A stretch of DNA of 64,000 bases from Escherichia phage vB_Eco_QOTSP: the sequence record OY720014. The stretch is one strand, 5' to 3'. The notes beneath the pieces were generated by a model. The model was given only the letters and a program-made list of their open reading frames with translations. It was not told the origin of the DNA and did not search any database. Below are positions 4,648 to 37,605 of the stretch, in pieces (position 1 is the stretch's first letter; every line of letters begins with the position of its first letter). The translations under genes and the position numbers were made by a program.

Positions 4648-5100
4648 ATGGCATATTCTGGAAAATGGGTTCCTAAAAATATATCAAAATATAGAGGTGA
4701 CCCTAAAAAAATTACGTATAGATCAAATTGGGAAAAATTCTTTTTTGAATGGTTAGATAAAAATCCAGAAATTATTGCATGGGGTAGTGAAACAGCAGTA
4801 ATTCCTTATTTTTGTAATGCAGAAGGGAAAAAACGTAGATACTTCATGGATATTTGGATGAAAGATTCTTCTGGACAAGAATTTTTTATTGAAATAAAAC
4901 CTAAAAAAGAAACACAACCACCAGTTAAACCAGCACATCTAACAACTGCAGCGAAGAAAAGATTTATGAATGAAATTTATACATATTCCGTTAATACCGA
5001 CAAATGGAAAGCAGCGCAAGCTTTAGCTGAAAAGCGTGGAATAAAATTTAGAATTCTAACAGAAGATGGATTACGAGCTCTTGGCTTTAAGGGGGCATAA
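4648..5100 (+). CDS. 4: gp4 head completion protein (150 aa)
   Basis: 150 aa ORF; synteny 53/4/2/3/1. Confidence 0.85.
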
Positions 5101-8106: not shown

Positions 8107-8364
8107 ATGAAAACTTTCAAAGAGTTTGCTACAGAAACTATTATCACTGAATCTTCTCATGGTATGGAAGTAAAGCTTGGAATGGCTTTAGCTGAAGCTG
8201 AGCGTCTTTTTTCTCGTATTAAAGAACTTGCTGCTGCAGTCGATCCTTCATCTTTTAAAGGAGACCAAACTAAAGTTAAAGCACTTTTAGCATTATGCTC
8301 TGATGCAGGAGAAATCGCTAAGAACGGTTCTAAGATGAAGAAACGATTAGAAGATTTAAAATAA
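8107..8364 (+). CDS. internal-protein-like small protein with variant capsid-targeting N-terminus (85 aa)
   Basis: N-terminus MKTFKEFATE resembles the T4 internal-protein targeting sequence MKTYQEFIAEA; own promoter. Confidence 0.5.
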   Translation: MKTFKEFATETIITESSHGMEVKLGMALAEAERLFSRIKELAAAVDPSSFKGDQTKVKALLALCSDAGEIAKNGSKMKKRLEDLK

Positions 8365-8424: not shown

Positions 8425-8676
8425 GTGAAATTGGAGAATAAAATGAAAACGTATCAAGAATTTATTGCTGAAGCTGCTGATGTAAAAGTTGAGTTTATTT
8501 ACATTGGCAAGAAAGATAAAATGGGCGAAATGCCTCATGGAGTTCTTCGTGATGCATTAGATAATTTCGGTCAACTCGCCGCAGAAGATTACGGTGATAA
8601 AATTGTTGTTACTGGTCCGGCTGCAGTTATTGAAAAATGGGCAGCAGAAAATAAATCAATTTTTCGTAAAAAATGA
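8425..8676 (+). CDS. ipI: internal protein I-like (83 aa)
   Basis: Begins with exact capsid-targeting sequence MKTYQEFIAEA; position between 57B and tRNAs as for T4 ipI. Confidence 0.6.
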   Translation: MKLENKMKTYQEFIAEAADVKVEFIYIGKKDKMGEMPHGVLRDALDNFGQLAAEDYGDKIVVTGPAAVIEKWAAENKSIFRKK

Positions 8677-18443: not shown

Positions 18444-18917
18444 ATGAAAACATATCAAGAATTTATCGCTGAAGCAGCTATTAATTCTCAAATTATTGCT
18501 GAATCTTTTACTGATCTTTTGAAATTTAAAAAAGGTCAAAAAATCACTGCTGTATTGGATGATGGTACAGAAGTTGAGATGGATGTACAGGGATATAATT
18601 ATGCAGTAGATGGAAAACTGTATAATAAATCTCATGCTAAATTTGATTCATTTGACGACTTTGTTAATACAGTTGAAGATGAAAAAACTCGTAGATCCAT
18701 TGCAACTGGTGATGCTAAGGTTCTTATGGCACATGGTCATGAACGCATTCGCGCTAAACAGAATAAAATGGGTGAAGATAATTTCGCATTAGTTGGTTAT
18801 CAATCTGGTAAACAAACTTATGGCTATCAACGTACTGCTACCATGTATAATAAAAATGGTAAAATTGCCTTTGTGAATAGTAAAGGTTCTATTCAGTACG
18901 TTAAATCGTTCAAATAA
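18444..18917 (+). CDS. internal-protein-like protein with canonical capsid-targeting sequence (157 aa)
   Basis: Starts MKTYQEFIAEA exactly as T4 internal proteins; located beside denV. Confidence 0.6.
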   Translation: MKTYQEFIAEAAINSQIIAESFTDLLKFKKGQKITAVLDDGTEVEMDVQGYNYAVDGKLYNKSHAKFDSFDDFVNTVEDEKTRRSIATGDAKVLMAHGHERIRAKQNKMGEDNFALVGYQSGKQTYGYQRTATMYNKNGKIAFVNSKGSIQYVKSFK

Positions 18918-28980: not shown

Positions 28981-29003
28981 TTTCAAAAATTTTTCACAAA
29001 ACG

Positions 29004-29035
29004 GTTTACATGGTCTGTAGTTGTTGATACTATAG
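29004..29035 (+). promoter_or_regulatory. early promoter (PeSL-type) with UP-like element
   Basis: AAAAATTTTTCACAAAACGGTTTACA...GATACTAT within stem GGTCT...AGACC. Confidence 0.6.
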
Positions 29036-29071
29036 ACCTATCAAAACAAATGAGTAAATTGGAGATACAAA

Positions 29072-29272
29072 ATGACTACTTTGAATAAACGTTTCGGTAA
29101 AGCTAAATCTGGTTGTGCAGCTGAACGTCGTTATGTTTTCGCTCAATTAGAAGATGTAGAGTATCAGATTAATCAAGTTCACATTACTGGTATCGAGCCT
29201 ATGTGTGGCCTTGAAGCTCTTCGTGAAGTTCGTGACGGGTATCGTCGTGACATCGAAGAAATGTCAAAATAA
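29072..29272 (+). CDS. hypothetical small protein (66 aa)
   Basis: ORF after GGAGATACAAAATG. Confidence 0.45.
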   Translation: MTTLNKRFGKAKSGCAAERRYVFAQLEDVEYQINQVHITGIEPMCGLEALREVRDGYRRDIEEMSK

Positions 29273-29305
29273 GTATACAAACTGATAGGACTATGTTATA
29301 GTAGT
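29273..29305 (+). promoter_or_regulatory. probable early promoter (PeSL-type)
   Basis: GTATAC(-35-like)...TATAGT inside palindrome GATAGGACTA...TAGTCCTATC. Confidence 0.45.
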
Positions 29306-29329
29306 CCTATCAAATCAAAGGAGAATAAA

Positions 29330-30298
29330 ATGAAAACTGTAACTATCAATAAGGGTATCTACTTCGGTAAAGAAATCTCTGGAACTTTTGAGCTCTTAGG
29401 CGAATGGTTCCCAGATAATGCTCCGGTAGATGCACAAGGAGATGGTAAAGTTTTTGTTGAAATTGACGGTAAACGTCGCGGTGTTTGGGTTTACAAATCA
29501 GACATTTCATATGATGGTGTAAAAGTTGAAGAAGTTAAAGAATCGTATGAAGATATGAAAACCCGCATTAATAAAAGATTTAATGTTATGGGAATGATGA
29601 CGAATGGTATTATTAATGGAAATATTCGTTCATTAATTATCTCTGGTGCGGCGGGTATTGGTAAAACGTATTCTTTAGATAAAGCTTTAAATAAAGCAAA
29701 TGATATTGGATACATTGAATATAAAAGCATTAACGGTAAAATCTCTGGTATCGGTCTTTATGAACAGCTTTGGAATAATCGTGAAGAGAATTCTGTCCTT
29801 TTGATTGATGATGTGGATGTTTTCTCTGATATGGACATTCTTAATCTTCTGAAAGCTGCTCTGGACACTGGAGAGACCCGTAAAGTCTGCTGGAGCACTG
29901 CATCTTCTTACTTAGAAGAAAAAGGCATTGAGCGTGAGTTTGAATTTAAAGGAACGATTGTTTTTATCACAAACGTTGACATTGACCGCGAATTAGACCG
30001 TGGTACTAAACTTGCTCCACATTTACAAGCATTAGTGTCCCGCTCAGTTTATTTGGATTTGGGTGTTCACACTAATGAAGAAATTATGGTCAGGGTTGAA
30101 GATGTTATTCTTTCGACTGATATGATGCAAAAGCGCGGTCTTTCTGATGAAGAAACTTATAAAGCATTATCATGGATGAAAGTCAATGTTAATCGTTTAC
30201 GCAATGTTTCACTGCGTACTGCTCTTTATCTTGCTGACTTTATTATGACCGACAAAAATGGTTGGGAAGAAATTGCTGAGGTTACTCTTCTGAAATAA
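29330..30298 (+). CDS. AAA-type P-loop ATPase with N-terminal extra domain (322 aa)
   Basis: Walker A GAAGIGKT, Walker B LLIDDVD, sensor-like TNVD. Confidence 0.65.
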   Translation: MKTVTINKGIYFGKEISGTFELLGEWFPDNAPVDAQGDGKVFVEIDGKRRGVWVYKSDISYDGVKVEEVKESYEDMKTRINKRFNVMGMMTNGIINGNIRSLIISGAAGIGKTYSLDKALNKANDIGYIEYKSINGKISGIGLYEQLWNNREENSVLLIDDVDVFSDMDILNLLKAALDTGETRKVCWSTASSYLEEKGIEREFEFKGTIVFITNVDIDRELDRGTKLAPHLQALVSRSVYLDLGVHTNEEIMVRVEDVILSTDMMQKRGLSDEETYKALSWMKVNVNRLRNVSLRTALYLADFIMTDKNGWEEIAEVTLLK

Positions 30299-30396
30299 TT
30301 CATAAGAGGCCTTCTATGACAAAAAGGCAGTTCAGAAATAGATTATATGGACTGCCATCAAAAAGATGACTAGAATTAAACTGGTAAATGGAGGTA

Positions 30397-30702
30397 ATGA
30401 TGTTATACTCAAAGGCTCGTGAAATTTATGAAACTAAAATTAAAGAAGCAGTATTTCAGTTCGCAACAACGATGCGATGGACAAATGATTGGGAGTATTC
30501 AAAAAATCATAAGAAGCCCTTGGTGACAAGAAAGGCTCATATGTTAGTGTTAATAGACCGTGAGCAGATTAAAGCCCGAGAAGCCCTCCAGAATCATAAA
30601 AAGGCTGCCTTTGAATGGTTTATGGATAACACTGCTCCTGAGACTAAGAAAGCAGTGAGCGCGTGGTTCAGTGGAAAAAATTGTGAAAGAAGTTTCTTTT
30701 AG
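30397..30702 (+). CDS. hypothetical protein (about 101 aa)
   Basis: ATG after GGAGG; track ORF starts at 30388. Confidence 0.45.
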   Translation: MMLYSKAREIYETKIKEAVFQFATTMRWTNDWEYSKNHKKPLVTRKAHMLVLIDREQIKAREALQNHKKAAFEWFMDNTAPETKKAVSAWFSGKNCERSFF

Positions 30703-30704
30703 TT

Positions 30705-30737
30705 GTTTACAAGACCGTTCCTCTGTGGTACTATACA
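30705..30737 (+). promoter_or_regulatory. early promoter
   Basis: GTTTAC...TGGTACTATACAACTATCAACTAC. Confidence 0.6.
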
Positions 30738-30762
30738 ACTATCAACTACGGAGGAACAGAAA

Positions 30763-31290
30763 ATGAATGCTAAAGATATTTTCAACTTGGTAAACTACAA
30801 TGATGGTAAATTTAAATCTGAAGCTCAAAGCAAGTTCTTTAATGACATCTCAATTGGAGGTGAAATCACGGTTGATGGAGGACAAATTTACAAATCTCGT
30901 TGGAATTGGATCGTTATTATCGATGAGATTGGTATTGTAGAAATTTACAAAAATACGAATAAAAATCGTACATTACACTGGTCTCGTGATACTAACGAAC
31001 AGTACAAAAAGGATAAAGCATCTAAATTATCTCGTGTAACTCAAGAAGATATTGAGTTCATCAAGAAAGATATTTTGATGTATGATAACTTAATTGCTGA
31101 AGAGCAAGCTGTTATTGATAAATTTGACGAGATTAAAGCTTCTCGTGAAATTCCTGATTTTATGAAAGAATCAGTAAATGAACGATACACTCTCATTTCA
31201 GAGCGTATTGAAACTTACAAAAAGCAAAGAGCTGAACGCCAGAATACTCTTCGGAAGTTTGAAGAACGGTTAAAGACGGTACTCGCATAA
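30763..31290 (+). CDS. hypothetical protein with C-terminal coiled coil (175 aa)
   Basis: ATG after GGAGGAACAGAAA. Confidence 0.5.
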   Translation: MNAKDIFNLVNYNDGKFKSEAQSKFFNDISIGGEITVDGGQIYKSRWNWIVIIDEIGIVEIYKNTNKNRTLHWSRDTNEQYKKDKASKLSRVTQEDIEFIKKDILMYDNLIAEEQAVIDKFDEIKASREIPDFMKESVNERYTLISERIETYKKQRAERQNTLRKFEERLKTVLA

Positions 31291-31345
31291 CCGCTTTATA
31301 CCAAGGATGGTATAATGGTTCTAAGCCCTTTTAATTGAGATTATT

Positions 31346-31753
31346 ATGAAACAGTTGATAATTAAAAGATTGAATTTATTGATATGTTGTTTATGTATAG
31401 TAATTGCATATGGTTATTACGCAATTAATGATTATATGCATTATAAAGATTATGATGTTACTGTAGTTAATACCCTTACAGGAACTCAAGGAAAGGGGTC
31501 TAGTTTATCGTTTATTGCCGTATATGAACTCAAAGACGGTTATAGATTTAGTGAATATATTTCCCCAGAGATGTATTCATCAATAGAAAAAGGCGATAAT
31601 ATTACTGTAAGTTTACGTCCTTTCGACGTAAAACAGACATTGTTTGATAATATTGTTTGGTTCTTTGGAATGGTATTAGTTCAATCTGTATGCGGTGCTT
31701 ATATAGTCTTTTCCATCATATTCTGTGTATTTAGTAAAATTGAAATTGAGTGA
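31346..31753 (+). CDS. membrane protein (135 aa)
   Basis: N- and C-terminal hydrophobic helices. Confidence 0.5.
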   Translation: MKQLIIKRLNLLICCLCIVIAYGYYAINDYMHYKDYDVTVVNTLTGTQGKGSSLSFIAVYELKDGYRFSEYISPEMYSSIEKGDNITVSLRPFDVKQTLFDNIVWFFGMVLVQSVCGAYIVFSIIFCVFSKIEIE

Positions 31754-31760
31754 GGAAAAT

Positions 31761-32648
31761 ATGTCAGTAGTAATTAATAATGTCAATACAGTAATTAAAT
31801 CTTTAGTTAATAAAAAAATGAATGAATGGACTGTACTTCGTCGTGGAGAGCCAGATAAATTTTTTCATAGATTTAACCCAACTTTGGATTTGAATGTTAT
31901 TGACAGAGATGTTCATGCAGAAATTTTAGATAAGTTTAAAGTTGATATTGGATTTGGATTAGAAAAACACTTACAGCGAACAAACGGGTCTGGAATGGGT
32001 TTATCTAATCGCATTATGAAAGCCCTTAATAAAATTGGAGCATTGTCTCGTATTAATGCAAGTGAAATTCTTCGCAATTATAATAAAGGCTATGATCTTT
32101 ACGGTCGACTAATGCCGAAATTATCATTTGACCAAATGATCGCAGATTTGTGGGAAAATCAACGACGATTATTAGCATTAGGCGCTCGATTAGCTAAAGG
32201 TCTAGATAAACAAATGATTTTTAAGACCAATAATACAGAAGACCTTAAATGCTTTAAATTTAGTATTCGCGGCGATGATTATTACGTCAGAGCTCGCTCT
32301 ACAGATTATGTTAATATGGGGCATCATCTCTGTTTAGCTTTTGAAGTTTTAAAAGAAGCCGGAACATTAGAATATGTGTCTGGTGCTAAATGCCCGATTG
32401 GTTCAAGTTGTATTTTAATTTATCGCCCGGATGAATCCAGTTTAACTAAATTGCCTACAAAACCTGTACCAGTTCGCAGTAATGAAAAACATTCTGAGCA
32501 AATTGATTATTTTAATAAGCAAATTGAAGAGCTGAATATTTCTATTCAACAGTATGACGATGAAATTTTCAGACTATCTGGATTGAGTAGTAAAGCTAAA
32601 TCTGAGCGTGAAAAATTAATTAAAATTGTTGATTTACTTAAATCTTAA
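31761..32648 (+). CDS. paralog-array member 1 with C-terminal coiled coil (295 aa)
   Basis: ATG after GAGTGAGGAAAATATG; shares architecture and C-terminal helix with the next three genes. Confidence 0.55.
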   Translation: MSVVINNVNTVIKSLVNKKMNEWTVLRRGEPDKFFHRFNPTLDLNVIDRDVHAEILDKFKVDIGFGLEKHLQRTNGSGMGLSNRIMKALNKIGALSRINASEILRNYNKGYDLYGRLMPKLSFDQMIADLWENQRRLLALGARLAKGLDKQMIFKTNNTEDLKCFKFSIRGDDYYVRARSTDYVNMGHHLCLAFEVLKEAGTLEYVSGAKCPIGSSCILIYRPDESSLTKLPTKPVPVRSNEKHSEQIDYFNKQIEELNISIQQYDDEIFRLSGLSSKAKSEREKLIKIVDLLKS

Positions 32649-32656
32649 GGAACACC

Positions 32657-33676
32657 ATGAAAACTCGTTCTCAAATTGAAGATATGGTTCGTAATGCCAG
32701 CTATACCCGTAATGTTATGACATTTTTGTGCCAAAATAATTTAGACCCTGATAAAGTTAATCGTGATATTCACTTTAAGTATATGAATAGCAGTGAATGG
32801 TTACGTCATTTTAGTAAAGCGGGATATATTACACAAATGACTGCTCGTGAGCAGCTCACCGATTTCTGTAAAACTATTGATTATAAAAATCCTCTATTTG
32901 TTCAAGGCGTTGGTCAGAGTAAGGTTGATTTATCAACAGGATTTTTTAATCCAAATCATTATCGTCTTGAATGGAGATTTATTGCTCTATTCCGTAAACA
33001 ATTAAAGCAAATTTTGTCGACGGCTAGTCGATTAAAAGGTTCTGACATTAACTTAAAGAACCTGAAATTTGATGGTTATACTCTTCAGATGGAAGTAAGA
33101 CCATTAAAAGAAAATAATAGAACTGCACGAATTAGCTTTAAACCTAATACAAAAAATTCTCTTTCAATTTGCGAATGCCTTAAATCGCAGTTGACAGAAG
33201 CATTTAAGTATATGGATGTTGTTGCCGCTGTTCATTCTAAGATTTTACCTCGTTTTGAGCGAAATTGGGAACATACAACAACATATGAACTTGATATGAT
33301 CGTTTCATTTAAATACGATTTTTTGAGAAAGGATGAAGTCCCGCAAGAGAAAAAGCAAGAAGTGCAAGATAACTTAAATTTATCTAATTACTCATCAAAC
33401 GATCCTAAATTTTGGATGTATAGTTCAGGCAATAAAGATGCATGGAAATTCAATAAAGTGAATTTTCTTCCTATTGAAAATCCGAGTCTTAAACCTGTTG
33501 AAAAATGGCACGCGGATGCGATTGAGAAGTCTATCAAGGCAGTAGATGATGAACTCGTTAAAGCGACCAATGAAGTGCTAGAAGCTGAAAAGATGCTAGA
33601 AAAAGCTCAAGAAAAAGTCAAAAATCTCACGAAGCAACGTTCTAAACTGAACAACGCACTAAATGCACTGAACTAG
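32657..33676 (+). CDS. paralog-array member 2 with C-terminal coiled coil (339 aa)
   Basis: C-terminal ...KVKNLTKQRSKLNNALNALN heptad helix; N-terminus MKTR... similar to member 4. Confidence 0.55.
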   Translation: MKTRSQIEDMVRNASYTRNVMTFLCQNNLDPDKVNRDIHFKYMNSSEWLRHFSKAGYITQMTAREQLTDFCKTIDYKNPLFVQGVGQSKVDLSTGFFNPNHYRLEWRFIALFRKQLKQILSTASRLKGSDINLKNLKFDGYTLQMEVRPLKENNRTARISFKPNTKNSLSICECLKSQLTEAFKYMDVVAAVHSKILPRFERNWEHTTTYELDMIVSFKYDFLRKDEVPQEKKQEVQDNLNLSNYSSNDPKFWMYSSGNKDAWKFNKVNFLPIENPSLKPVEKWHADAIEKSIKAVDDELVKATNEVLEAEKMLEKAQEKVKNLTKQRSKLNNALNALN

Positions 33677-33706
33677 TTTACTTCGCCACAAGGATGTGGT
33701 ATAATG
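33676..33706 (+). promoter_or_regulatory. early promoter
   Basis: GTTTAC -35 and TATAAT -10 17 bp apart. Confidence 0.6.
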
Positions 33707-33733
33707 TTCTTACTTTCTACTGAGGAGATTAAT

Positions 33734-34735
33734 ATGACTCGTAACGAATATATCAAATCATTCAATAGCGTTATTGATGATAAAGTTATACCGCTGTTTG
33801 GCCAAAATAGTGTTCTTTCTATTATCAATCAATGGCTCAATAATATTGATGCAAGTATTGTTTCTTCCGGCAAATTTATTCATGAAGTTCATGAAATTTC
33901 TAGTCGTACAAATAAAGATGCCATTAAGAAAACCTTTAAAGGATCTCGTCTTCTTTCATATTTGGTTAATCGGGATATTCTTGGTAATTTTGGGAAAGAA
34001 ATTAAACGAACCAAAGATGTAGTAGGATATAATTGGTTCGGTGATGTTAATTCTTATCATCTTAATATCAAAGAAGACCCTGAGAATATTTTTACTCGTC
34101 GTTGGATTAGTAATTTCAGACTTTTCAAAGGACAAATTCTAAAATCAGCTTCTAAATTATGTTATGGCGATTATCGTCAAATTCATCCTTTGGCTTCTGA
34201 TATGATTATCGTAAAAGAATATGAGCTTGATAAAAATAAAGTAGCTATTTTTGTGAATTATGGATTTTTTACACCAGCAGCTAATCAAAAGAACATTAAT
34301 AAATTTTTCTCAATTGCTAGCACTATAACTCATCAATTAGAGACGGCTTTGGGCTGTATGGAAACTGTAAAAAGTATTCATACATATCCTTTCAAAAATA
34401 TGTGTGGATGGGAAGGATATAAAATTATAATTAGTCTTCGTGAAGTAAAGTGTGCGTACTCACCGACTAATAAAGAAATTTACCAACAAAAATGTGATGA
34501 AATTGTGAATACTCCTAAAGAAGAAACTACCCTTGAGGAACTAATGGAATGTCTTGATGATTCACCTGAACCGGTAGAAATTCGTCCAGAAGTTATTGCG
34601 CTAGAAAAAGCTTATAAAGAAGTTCTAGAAATTTCTAATAAAGCGCACAAAGAATATGAGCAGGCTAAAAAGATTTGGGAAGAATCCGTTAATCGTCTTG
34701 ATCGTCTAGAACAAGCTTTACAGTTAATTAAGTAA
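33734..34735 (+). CDS. paralog-array member 3 with C-terminal coiled coil (333 aa)
   Basis: ATG after TGAGGAGATTAAT; C-terminal ...NRLDRLEQALQLIK. Confidence 0.55.
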   Translation: MTRNEYIKSFNSVIDDKVIPLFGQNSVLSIINQWLNNIDASIVSSGKFIHEVHEISSRTNKDAIKKTFKGSRLLSYLVNRDILGNFGKEIKRTKDVVGYNWFGDVNSYHLNIKEDPENIFTRRWISNFRLFKGQILKSASKLCYGDYRQIHPLASDMIIVKEYELDKNKVAIFVNYGFFTPAANQKNINKFFSIASTITHQLETALGCMETVKSIHTYPFKNMCGWEGYKIIISLREVKCAYSPTNKEIYQQKCDEIVNTPKEETTLEELMECLDDSPEPVEIRPEVIALEKAYKEVLEISNKAHKEYEQAKKIWEESVNRLDRLEQALQLIK

Positions 34736-34789
34736 AATTTAAAGCCAAGGATGGCTCGGAGTATAAATCATTAACCAAGTGAGAAGAAC

Positions 34790-35716
34790 ATGAAAACTCG
34801 TAAACATTATATTGATTATTTTGACAGTCTTATTACTAAACATCGTGATTATCAGATAGGACACAGAGCAGTAATCAATAATATTCTTCGTGATTTTTTA
34901 GATTATACTGGACAGGAAAATCATATCTGTAAGGATACTCAGAATGCGTATTCACAATCTCTTGGTTCTTTACTTGAGTGGTTCAAGCGTTCTCGTGTGT
35001 TATCTTCTACTGTAGCTCGTGAGAACATTAAAAAATTTATGTATCCAAGCTACATTGAGACTAATGTATCAAATGCTAGTGTTGTTACATTTAATATTAT
35101 TAACGACGTGAAAAGAACTTATTTAGAAGAATGGTTTTCTAAAAATAGTAAAGAAAAATTTACTAGTGAGTTTTCACGCGAATTCAATAATAACGTGAAT
35201 ATGCTTTTTAAGCATTCTCGTAGACTGTTTTGTCATGGCGATGATCGTACTATTAATGTGAATGTAAAAGACTGGGTTACGGCTAAATTCATTCCATCAT
35301 CCCAGAATAAATCATCTGAATTATCAGTTATTATCTGTGCTCCGCACGAGATATATAAAAATCTTCCGTATATGAAACCGCGTGAAGCTAATAAACACAA
35401 TGAAACAATTCGTTCTTTGACTTATAATTTGCGTATGTTATTATCTAAAATGGATGTAGTTGAATCCTTTGATGATAATACAAATTATGGTCTTTCGTTG
35501 TTTGAAACTAAAGTTGTTATTAAGTTAAAGGACCCTAGTGAATTTAAACCTACGTCAAAACCCAATCATGGGAATGATACTATGAAAGAAGAACGCGAAT
35601 ATCTCAATACTCGTTTGATTGAAGTTGAAGCCCAAATTGCAGAACACACCAAATTGTTAAAAGCTCTTAATGCAAAAGCAAATGGTTTACGTAATGCTAT
35701 TGAGGTATTGAAATGA
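34790..35716 (+). CDS. paralog-array member 4 with C-terminal coiled coil (308 aa)
   Basis: C-terminal ...[21 protein letters not shown]; N-terminus MKTRKHYIDYF. Confidence 0.55.
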   Translation: MKTRKHYIDYFDSLITKHRDYQIGHRAVINNILRDFLDYTGQENHICKDTQNAYSQSLGSLLEWFKRSRVLSSTVARENIKKFMYPSYIETNVSNASVVTFNIINDVKRTYLEEWFSKNSKEKFTSEFSREFNNNVNMLFKHSRRLFCHGDDRTINVNVKDWVTAKFIPSSQNKSSELSVIICAPHEIYKNLPYMKPREANKHNETIRSLTYNLRMLLSKMDVVESFDDNTNYGLSLFETKVVIKLKDPSEFKPTSKPNHGNDTMKEEREYLNTRLIEVEAQIAEHTKLLKALNAKANGLRNAIEVLK

Positions 35717-36102
35717 AAAAGCGTCTATTAGAAGATATTGCAGCTTCTAGTAATTCCAGTCTAATTAAAATTATTATGGCTGGTGAAGAAGACGATCTGG
35801 AAATGCGTGGAAAGATTCACGGCTGCGACGATTTAGATTTTAAACCTCCAGCATGGGATGCTATTATGGCTATGGTTGAACGACGTGAAAGAGCTTCTAA
35901 AAACGTTCCTAATTGCCCTGAATGCGGTACTGAACAAGTTCAATTGATTAACTGGCGTAAACCAGAGCTTGAATATAAATGCCGTCATTGTAAACATAAA
36001 TTTAATAAGCATGCTCCGGAAATGGTTAAATTGCCTGACTCTACTGAGTTCTTTAAAGAACTTGTGAGTGTTCAACCAATGCCTAATAATATTTTGGATT
36101 AA
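35713..36102 (+). CDS. zinc-ribbon protein (129 aa)
   Basis: CPEC...CRHC four-Cys motif; overlaps upstream stop. Confidence 0.5.
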
Positions 36103-36104
36103 AA

Positions 36105-36347
36105 ATGACCAAGCGTAAAGAATATATGGAGACTGCTAAAAAGGCAGTCCGTGAATTAGCAATAGCTTATTATAATGAACATGGTAAATTTCCTGATAGA
36201 TACAGCGTGCTTAAATCTGCTTTAACTCGTTCATATAAAAATATGCTATCAGAAGTAAGTGATATTATATACAAACATAAAGAACAAACGGGCCAAAGTC
36301 TTGATTACGACGAGACTTTTAAACAAGTACTAGGAATTAAGGAATAA
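36105..36347 (+). CDS. hypothetical small protein (80 aa)
   Basis: ORF just upstream of nrdC. Confidence 0.45.
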
Positions 36348-36348
36348 T

Positions 36349-36612
36349 ATGTTTAAAGTATATGGTTATGATAACAACATCCATAAATGTGTGTATTGCG
36401 ATAATGCAAAACGTCTTTTGACTGTGAAGAAACAGCCGTTTGAATTTATCAACATTATGCCGGAAAAAGGTGTTTTTGATGATGAGAAAATTGCTGAGCT
36501 TCTGACTAAACTGGGTCGTGATACTCAAATTGGCTTGACGATGCCTCAAGTATTTGCTCCTGATGGAAGTCATATTGGTGGATTTGACCAATTGCGGGAA
36601 TACTTTAAATGA
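36349..36612 (+). CDS. nrdC: phage thioredoxin/glutaredoxin NrdC (87 aa)
   Basis: Active-site CVYC; MFKVYGYD... matches T4 NrdC. Confidence 0.9.
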   Translation: MFKVYGYDNNIHKCVYCDNAKRLLTVKKQPFEFINIMPEKGVFDDEKIAELLTKLGRDTQIGLTMPQVFAPDGSHIGGFDQLREYFK

Positions 36613-36824
36613 TGCTCGAAGGAACTGACTATATTCATGATTACCGCGGAAGCGCGGTATATGTAGGTGATGAAGTTGCAGTTTATTATGGGTATGGAAC
36701 TTTGATGACAGCAAAGGTTATTCAAATTAAAAATAATCGTGCTAAACTTGAAGTTTATTATTCTAATGGTGAAAAGTCTATTTCTAAGTGGAAATACGGC
36801 GATTGTATGGTCAAACTGGGGTAA
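36609..36824 (+). CDS. hypothetical small protein (71 aa)
   Basis: ORF overlapping the nrdC stop. Confidence 0.45.
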   Translation: MMLEGTDYIHDYRGSAVYVGDEVAVYYGYGTLMTAKVIQIKNNRAKLEVYYSNGEKSISKWKYGDCMVKLG

Positions 36825-37119
36825 ATATGATTTACGATATTAATGTAGCAAAAGCTCCGTCAATGGTTACTATTCCTGCTGAAGAACTAGATCGTCTTCA
36901 TAAAATTGAAGAACTTCTTTGGGAAATTGAATCTGATTTGCCATCAGGATTAGAATCCTGGATTGATTATGAAGAACTTAATAAGCTTCGGGGTTAAACC
37001 TTGGTGGGCGGCTAGATGGGAAACTGTAGAGCCAGAGCCGGAAGAACCGGTTTACACTGATGAAGAAACAGTATATAATGAACCAACGATAAATGACTTA
37101 ATTGATATGGAGATGGGAC

Positions 37120-37605
37120 ATGATTACAGTAGATAAGTGGTTTAGAATTAATCGTGCTGATACAGGGCTGTGTAATTACTGGCCGGAACTTAGCGCAGGT
37201 ACTGTCTTTAAAGTTCGTGAACTTGCAAAAGAATGTGAAGATGATATAGAGCCTGATACTGGAATTATTGAAATTGAACTTTCCGACGGAAAGATTATTA
37301 ATATCTATGATAAGCCAATTACGTATTGGTGCTTGTGGAATACTGAATCAGTAGAAAATGGCGAAATTGAAGAAGTTGTAGATAGAACTAATCAAGTTGT
37401 TCAGAAGCCTAAAGCTGATTTTCAAGGTGAACGTATTTCATACGCATTAGCTAAATTAGCTGCACAAGAAAATAATGATGGCTATGAAGGAAATTTAATG
37501 CAAGCTGCCGCAGAGTACATTGAATGGCTTGAAACTCAAATTTCTTTTTCTGACCGAATGATTCAGCAATATAAGCGATTGCATCAAATGTTTTACAATA
37601 CTTGA
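37120..37605 (+). CDS. pin: Pin-like protein (host Lon protease inhibitor), 161 aa
   Basis: Internal ATG of track ORF 37102 gives 161 aa; position upstream of gene 49 as in T4. Confidence 0.6.
   Translation: MITVDKWFRINRADTGLCNYWPELSAGTVFKVRELAKECEDDIEPDTGIIEIELSDGKIINIYDKPITYWCLWNTESVENGEIEEVVDRTNQVVQKPKADFQGERISYALAKLAAQENNDGYEGNLMQAAAEYIEWLETQISFSDRMIQQYKRLHQMFYNT

Follow-up and report, generated by a model that had tools for sequence, protein, structure and literature searches.

The closest described system to the genes considered here, a tandem array of nrdC.6, nrdC.5, nrdC.4 and nrdC.3 in a 64,000-nucleotide stretch of Escherichia phage vB_Eco_QOTSP (OY720014; the whole stretch is referred to as the window), is nrdC.5 of phage T4. 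A T4 clone missing a genome segment does not plate on ECOR17 unless dsr1 is deleted, and plasmid-borne T4 nrdC.5 alone, termed an early gene by the authors, restores plating of the deletion mutant on MG1655 carrying dsr1 (Srikant, Guegler and Laub, eLife 2022, PMC9391042). The activity is known for the T4 protein against ECOR17 Dsr1 only, and PMC9391042 gives neither a mechanism, a structure nor a family relationship; the sensor domain of Dsr1 is reported to recognise the phage major capsid protein. A second phage protein, DSAD1, resembles NrdC.5 in that it neutralises a SIR2-domain NADase defence protein, as mentioned in PMC10973363, and differs in its target, DSR2, which is triggered by tail tube protein. 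No search that we ran found a sequence or fold relation between DSAD1 and the nrdC family; by analogy, DSAD1 is a natural working model for NrdC.5, which may likewise act by binding its sensor directly. The published counter-defence genes nrdC.1 (against Septu) and gp49.2 (against OLD), together with Pin (against Lon), lie in the same hyperplastic neighbourhood and orientation as the array, are non-essential and vary between T-even phages. They differ from the array in encoding small single-domain proteins of 80-160 amino acids (aa), unrelated in sequence, with neither a coiled-coil tail nor tandem paralogs.

Our analysis suggests that the four genes are members of one family, nrdC.6 probably so, built from an exchangeable head and a retained C-terminal helix. 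Region 31000-36400 is about 95% identical in nucleotide (nt) sequence to hundreds of Tequatrovirus genomes (Escherichia, Shigella and Yersinia phages), and this comparison identifies the window as a T4-like phage (Tequatrovirus) and the four genes as nrdC.6, nrdC.5, nrdC.4 and nrdC.3, named after the RB51 and T4 annotation. They are consecutive plus-strand open reading frames (ORFs) of exactly the lengths first reported (295, 339, 333 and 308 aa). Gene order is identical to that of T4 and the proteins are 97% (nrdC.6), 92% (nrdC.5), 92% (nrdC.4) and 89% (nrdC.3) identical to their T4 counterparts, which places them in the same orthologous groups; they match PHROGs 2257, 2351, 1435 and 1435, respectively, with E-values from 1e-100 to 6e-171. 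Window NrdC.5 is the ortholog of T4 NrdC.5 over its full length and in the same position, and is a member of DUF7235 (PF23882; 420.8 bits, E 4.8e-126, against a Pfam gathering threshold of 30 bits). From its identity to the T4 protein, it would be expected to counter Dsr1 as well. In Pfam, nrdC.6, nrdC.4 and nrdC.3 do not match the DUF7235 model.

The first-pass annotation of the window had described four divergent paralogs; this stands for nrdC.5, nrdC.4 and nrdC.3, with nrdC.6 joining them by predicted fold only. Among the four, plain blastp gives a single link, between nrdC.4 and nrdC.3 (24.6% over 203 aa), the two that have phrog_1435 in common. Comparison by hhalign of family alignments built from database homologs gave a probability of 98.2% for nrdC.4/nrdC.3 (E 5e-14), 91% for nrdC.5/nrdC.4 (E 1.1e-6, 258 columns) and 51% for nrdC.5/nrdC.3, the last in the helix only. 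Searched against 1.84 billion representative proteins, the nrdC.4 profile returned just seven matches, which indicates an extremely narrow family; one of the seven is nrdC.3 (P0230, E 1.8e-7). Leave-one-out hidden Markov models (HMMs) of a conserved 25-residue motif also recover nrdC.3 (E 0.005). For the structural comparison, AlphaFold2 (AF2) models were made of nrdC.6 and nrdC.4, and the fold evidence covers these two and their matches in BFVD. Both models begin with an N-terminal helical bundle and a helix-helix-short helix unit; two beta hairpins with a helix between them come next, and a low-confidence linker leads to the C-terminal helices, the element order being H-H-h-E-E-H-E-E, linker, C-terminal helix in each. 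With Foldseek, the nrdC.4 model finds nrdC.3 (E 9e-8) and the BFVD model of JS10 NrdC.6 (E 7.2e-6, probability 1.0, TM-scores 0.40/0.47), and both of our models match six common uncharacterised Straboviridae proteins of 300-335 aa from Enterobacter, Pectobacterium, Klebsiella and Acinetobacter T4-like phages. The alignment from a relaxed hhalign comparison is collinear and brings together the best-conserved motifs of each family, LSRINASEIL / ITQMTAREQL / LSYLVNRDIL, GARLAKGLD / ASRLKGSD / ASKLCYGD and QQYDDEI / AVDDEL / QQKCDEI. These links and the shared fold lead us to treat nrdC.4 and nrdC.3 as clear paralogs on sequence grounds, nrdC.5 as their likely paralog through the nrdC.5/nrdC.4 step, and nrdC.6 as a probable member of the family at the level of modelled structure.

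In each protein, a disordered linker connects a helical plus alpha/beta head of about 230-260 aa to a heptad-periodic C-terminal helix (Table 1). The amphipathic helix had been predicted from the start; at 45-60 aa it is longer than the roughly 40 aa proposed. The last 47-59 residues of each protein are free of proline in the heptad scan, and the hydrophobic moment at 3.5 residues per repeat, compared with 2000 shuffles, gives z = 3.4 (nrdC.6), 4.9 (nrdC.5), 4.4 (nrdC.4) and 2.1 (nrdC.3). Taking a coiled coil to be an amphipathic helix whose heptad pattern runs through at least four or five repeats, the sequence periodicity and the AF2 helices qualify. The terminal strings quoted in the first-pass annotation are all present, and a motif that we wrote post hoc from the four sequences, L-x-x-[AIV]-[LIVM]-x-x-[LI]-[KN] no more than one residue from the C-terminus, ends only these four of the 254 ORFs in the window and is retained within each family across genera. 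The N-terminal MKTR noted for the second and fourth proteins is indeed common to nrdC.5 and nrdC.3, and nrdC.4 has a similar start, MTRNEYI.

A variable N-terminal domain joined to a shared helix had also been proposed, and conservation of the helix exceeds that of the head in 12 of 16 comparisons, among them all nine intergeneric ones: for example, 74% against 53% for nrdC.3 and its Mosigvirus ortholog, 71% against 37% for nrdC.6 and Gaprivervirus, and 67% against 40% for nrdC.4 and Dhakavirus. Since the helix is more conserved than the head, it is not low-complexity filler. The helices differ between paralogs except in the last ten or so residues and are well conserved within each paralog, a sequence pattern that fits homo-oligomerisation at least as well as hetero-oligomerisation or a common host partner. 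The nearby nrdC.8 product also has a charged, heptad-like terminal helix (ending RQNTLRKFEERLKTVLA); it matches neither the terminal motif nor any of the four families.

Table 1. Positions of the array genes, their parts and associated features in the window (E, E-value; RBS, ribosome-binding site; pLDDT, predicted local distance difference test)
Feature	Position	Strand	Product or part	Basis and remarks
nrdC.6	31761-32648	+	295 aa	RBS GAGG; phrog_2257; precomputed PF26899; RB51/T4 annotation
nrdC.6 parts			head 1-226; low-confidence linker 227-241; helices 245-271 and 277-294; end KLIKIVDLLKS	AF2, pLDDT 78.7
nrdC.5	32657-33676	+	339 aa	DUF7235; ortholog of T4 anti-Dsr1 gene
nrdC.5 heptad-periodic C-terminal segment	33497-33673	+	about 281-339; end KLNNALNALN	heptad scan
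nrdC.4	33734-34735	+	333 aa	phrog_1435; precomputed PF26897; AF2, pLDDT 82.6
nrdC.4 parts	34586-34732 (helix)		head 1-258; disordered linker 260-284; single long helix 285-332; end RLEQALQLIK	
nrdC.3	34790-35716	+	308 aa	phrog_1435, E 1e-100
nrdC.3 parts	35573-35713 (helix)		head about 1-258; C-terminal helix about 262-308	heptad scan
Promoter-like site	33677-33705	+	TTTACT-17-TATAAT, extended -10 TG	57-nt gap upstream of nrdC.4; consensus scan 10/12
Mosaic block	34830-35590	+	nrdC.3 head	sliding-window identity to OE5505 42-87%
Manna chimera junction 9-mer	32559-32567; 34496-34504	+	GATGAAATT (Asp-Glu-Ile)	in nrdC.6; identical in nrdC.4
nrdC.10	29330-30298		322 aa	Walker A GAAGIGKT
nrdC.8	30763-31290		175 aa	
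Hairpin and TATAAAT	34742-34775			gap upstream of nrdC.3
nrdC.2 3' end	35950-36130			nt identity 10-30%
Region compared with T4 AF158101	32530-32650		end of nrdC.6	AF158101 (L002) 4740-4800
Leader-bearing ORFs	8107-8364; 8443-8676; 18444-18917			T4 capsid-targeting leader or variant

The heads appear to have been moved between phages and between paralogs, the breakpoints being placed either at the linker or within the C-terminal helical region. Compared with OE5505, nucleotide identity of nrdC.3 is low over a mosaic block covering the head and is back at 96% precisely where the C-terminal helix starts; compared with T4 and RB51 the pattern is reversed, the helix being the divergent part at 77-83%. 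From these opposite patterns we conclude that window nrdC.3 combines a T4-type head with an OE5505-type helix, the breakpoint lying at the linker. The head block has a synonymous divergence (dS) of about 0.73, which indicates an imported old allele rather than rapid local substitution. Other phages show natural rearrangements of the array. In Salmonella phage Manna, a 345-aa in-frame chimera of nrdC.6(1-269) and nrdC.4(257-333) stands in place of nrdC.6, nrdC.5 and nrdC.4 (L011, 3215-4252), and its junction falls in a 9-mer that is identical in the two window genes. Phage ACG-C40 has kept the nrdC.3 helix without its head and has lost nrdC.4 entirely and nrdC.5 for the most part; in phage Pinarejo a remnant coding for the nrdC.6 helix alone survives; and the metagenomic protein P0056 is an nrdC.5::nrdC.3 fusion.

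Some further sequence changes were observed in and beside the array. In NrdC.6 of Shigella phage Sf25 (P0123, 378 aa), an internal segment of about 83 aa is duplicated in tandem: IRAHSTDYVNMGHH...NKQIEEL is present twice, and the duplication spans the second half of the head. In the T4 record AF158101, nrdC.6 is annotated as 275 aa with an unrelated C-terminus, owing to a 1-nt deletion (gagctg-atattt against gagctgaatattt) that leaves the coiled-coil coding intact in another frame. The gene is full length in other T4 records and in the HIDEN-SEQ T4 annotation (891 nt), and the deletion is therefore a sequencing error or a laboratory-strain mutation. Directly downstream of the array, the low identity at the 3' end of nrdC.2 marks a further mosaic junction; the nrdC.2 product has 129 aa and a zinc-ribbon-like CxxC...CxxC C-terminus in the window and RB51, and 104 aa in T4 and OE5505.

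The divergence of the array in an otherwise highly conserved genome, from which diversifying selection had at first been suspected, is real and exceeds that of the flanking genes; the selection is not borne out. Over about 600 phage records, identity to the window proteins drops steadily from nrdC.6 (95-99% in 460 records) through nrdC.5 (95-99% in 173, 90-95% in 246, 80-90% in 66) and nrdC.4 (90-95% in 392, 80-90% in 61) to nrdC.3 (60-80% in 360, 80-90% in 124, at least 99% in one); the control gene nrdC.10 is at least 99% identical in 482. Gene-wide ratios of nonsynonymous to synonymous substitution (dN/dS; pairwise Nei-Gojobori against RB51, T4 and OE5505) are 0.06-0.08 for nrdC.6, 0.09-0.22 for nrdC.5, 0.21-0.28 for nrdC.4 and 0.20-0.36 for nrdC.3, and 0-0.17 for the flanking genes except nrdC.7 against T4 (0.35). 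The pairwise range of 0.06-0.36 does not support gene-wide positive selection (dN/dS above 1); positive selection confined to single sites may still operate. Constraint on the array genes is relaxed or partly diversifying, with dN/dS below 1, and much of the divergence consists of imported alleles, the nrdC.3 head among them, rather than local mutation. The control gene nrdC.10, which has weak AAA/STAND-NTPase matches in Pfam, is nearly invariant in Tequatrovirus, quite unlike the variable array adjoining it; versions with 35-66% identity occur in T4-like phages of Acinetobacter and Vibrio and as far afield as jumbo phages.

The position of the array between nrdC.10 and nrdC is conserved, and its copy number ranges from one in Moonvirus to four in Tequatrovirus, a range that would be the outcome of duplication, loss and exchange between phages. 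Tequatrovirus has all four genes, Mosigvirus has nrdC.6, nrdC.5 and nrdC.3, and Gaprivervirus and Dhakavirus have nrdC.6, a 71-aa hydrophobic ORF, nrdC.5 and nrdC.4. Searches by structure found two adjacent relatives (p120 and p121) in Acinetobacter phage Acj61 and one (Moon_89) in Citrobacter phage Moon, all in the same position upstream of nrdC. These proteins have C-terminal coiled coils whose tail is of the A-[LV]-x-x-[LM] type and are otherwise unrecognisable by sequence: hhalign gave no significant match of p120, p121 or Moon_89 to any family, except for the Moon helix against nrdC.5 (47%). The 71-aa ORF, probably a membrane protein, follows nrdC.6 and extends over the start of nrdC.5 in VR7 (Gaprivervirus; L004, 4844-5059) and WG01 (Dhakavirus; L005, 4856-5071); Tequatrovirus has instead the membrane protein nrdC.7 upstream of nrdC.6.

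In the window, the array is flanked by nrdC.7 and by nrdC.2, nrdC.1 and the thioredoxin gene nrdC. A Shine-Dalgarno sequence is present at all four starts, nrdC.7, nrdC.6 and nrdC.5 are tightly packed with gaps of 7-8 nt, and the nrdC.3 stop and nrdC.2 start overlap (ATGA). The promoter-like site upstream of nrdC.4 resembles the T4 early-promoter consensus and may be active as a promoter. A scan of 29000-37500 against Rfam found no RNA families. The gap upstream of nrdC.3 contains a short GC-rich hairpin, AGCCAAGGATGGCT, and after it the sequence TATAAAT, similar to the core of T4 late promoters.

We suggest, with confidence a little better than even, that the array is an early-expressed accessory counter-defence (host-range) family of T4-like phages (Straboviridae), with swappable target-binding heads on an oligomerising helix. 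The fast-evolving head, exchanged by recombination, would bind one specific immune protein of the host (for nrdC.5, Dsr1); a flexible linker would join it to the conserved C-terminal amphipathic helix, which would oligomerise the protein as a coiled coil; and exchange of heads, both among phages and among paralogs, would take place at the linker. Expression appears to be early, in the case of nrdC.4 from its own early-type promoter, so that the proteins would meet host sensors before these fire. The products of nrdC.3, nrdC.4 and nrdC.6 may target other defence systems. None of the four genes is needed for growth on a laboratory host. The anti-defence role implied by the first-pass annotation is realised by one member, T4 nrdC.5 against Dsr1 (PMC9391042). 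The annotation's remark that no enzymatic motif is visible also agrees with our searches: scans of Pfam, NCBIfam and PADLOC for a known domain or enzymatic motif gave DUF7235 only, and three family alignments, searched against PDB by sequence and by profile, gave only spurious matches to designed helical repeats. Literature searches found no papers on DUF7235, PF26897 or PF26899, and none on later nrdC.5 work or the anti-Dsr1 mechanism.

Several observations weigh against a counter-defence family. Functional data among the four exist for nrdC.5 alone, and its rescue could be indirect. None of the genes scored in the single conditional-fitness comparison cited from the HIDEN-SEQ study (bioRxiv 10.1101/2025.11.20.689424), and Pfam, PHROGs, NCBIfam and PADLOC yielded no known anti-defence or defence family. 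Gene-wide dN/dS is below 1 throughout, with no arms-race signature, and that of nrdC.6 is as low as in ordinary genes. The AF2 models are monomers of moderate confidence. Lastly, nrdC.6 has no significant sequence link to the other families (hhalign probability 1-6% against each), and the leave-one-out motif HMMs recover neither nrdC.6 nor nrdC.5.

The most serious competitor, which we nevertheless consider unlikely, is that the genes are accessory host-takeover factors unrelated to immunity, acting on host metabolism, transcription or the nucleoid, and that nrdC.5 affects Dsr1 indirectly, for instance because the trigger appears later or in smaller amount, or because NAD+ is buffered. The low dN/dS suits such a role and the published rescue comes without a demonstrated mechanism; moreover, nrdC.3-nrdC.6 are all non-essential in a T4 insertion library on a laboratory host, according to the supplement of the HIDEN-SEQ preprint (bioRxiv 10.1101/2025.11.20.689424), and nrdC.3, nrdC.4 and nrdC.6 have no scored phenotype in the comparison quoted from it. 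However, the locus is rich in direct anti-defence genes, a hypervariable, exchanged head with a retained helix is typical of proteins that track variable host targets, and neither an enzymatic nor a nucleic-acid-binding signature was found in Pfam, NCBIfam or PADLOC.

The alpha/beta core raises a different idea. A speculative extension of the counter-defence reading, to which we attach a low probability, is a repertoire of interchangeable heads, derived from a tail-terminator or tail-tube-like fold, on a constant oligomerising helix, serving early as decoy or blocker of structural-protein sensors, with Dsr1 the first known target and another sensor for each of nrdC.3, nrdC.4 and nrdC.6. Put as an alternative in its own right, that the core is a repurposed tail-terminator or tail-completion-like fold acting as an early decoy for one structural-protein sensor per paralog, the idea seems to us slightly less probable still. 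A 'tail completion protein' is included in the Foldseek BFVD list with a probability of 0.91, and bacteria do possess sensors that respond to tail terminators and other structural proteins (bioRxiv 10.64898/2026.01.04.697583). However, Z is below 8 and identity at most 17% to tail terminator or completion proteins (lambda gpU, T5 p142, SPP1 gp17-like, DUF3168), making this a fold-level lead only, and nitroreductases, RNA polymerase subunits and ribosomal proteins reach nearly the same scores, so that the tail-terminator-like fold may be a generic two-layer sandwich. Unlike tail terminators, the nrdC proteins are probably early, are non-essential and three times larger, and have an extra helical subdomain and a coiled coil; neither ring assembly nor a virion location is indicated for them. 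Mimicry of the Dsr1 trigger is weakened because Dsr1, the only known target, is reported to sense the capsid protein and not a tail protein.

We regard it as similarly improbable that the four genes are not one family, nrdC.6 being unrelated and having acquired a generic C-terminal coiled coil by convergence. The hhalign values and the missed recovery of nrdC.6 would be expected in that case, as would Foldseek TM-scores of just 0.40-0.47. Convergence does not readily explain the match of the nrdC.4 model to JS10 NrdC.6 (E 7e-6, probability 1.0) and the match set common to both models, the same order of secondary-structure elements, the collinear conserved motifs of the relaxed alignment, the natural chimera joined in common DEI codons or the identical terminal motif.

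The capsid-targeting sequence of T4 internal proteins ends in an I-x-E cleavage site, and we know of no report of nrdC.3-nrdC.6 proteins in T4 virions. That the array proteins are packaged in the head and injected like internal proteins, with M(K)TR-x-x-Y-I N-termini as the targeting sequence, can hardly be maintained: although nrdC.3 (MKTRKHYIDY), nrdC.4 (MTRNEYIKSF) and nrdC.5 (MKTRSQIEDM) partly resemble a leader found in the window (MKTYQEFIAE, at 8443 and 18444) and several N-terminal residues of nrdC.4 do not change between genera (M1, T2, R3, E5, Y6, I7, F10), nrdC.3, nrdC.4 and nrdC.5 lack the I-x-E site and share only M(K)T..[YF]I, nrdC.6 is without the motif, and nrdC.5 is active when the host makes it from a plasmid (PMC9391042). 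For want of an I/L-x-E cleavage site, we set aside a capsid-targeting sequence in the nrdC proteins. The three window ORFs that do carry the T4 leader or a variant (MKTYQEFIAE in two, MKTFKEFATE in one) presumably encode internal proteins.

The T4 genes themselves and the published function of nrdC.5 are known; what is new is the family relationship, the modular head-and-helix anatomy with its junction-level recombination, and the counter-defence candidates that result. T4 is the best-studied phage, yet three of the four genes are without a known function. Family membership, a single Straboviridae locus and heads swapped at a defined junction with the helix kept turn an anecdotal anti-Dsr1 gene into an experimentally tractable family. 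If our reading is correct, the family would be a natural system for studying how counter-defence specificity is diversified by domain exchange rather than by point mutation.

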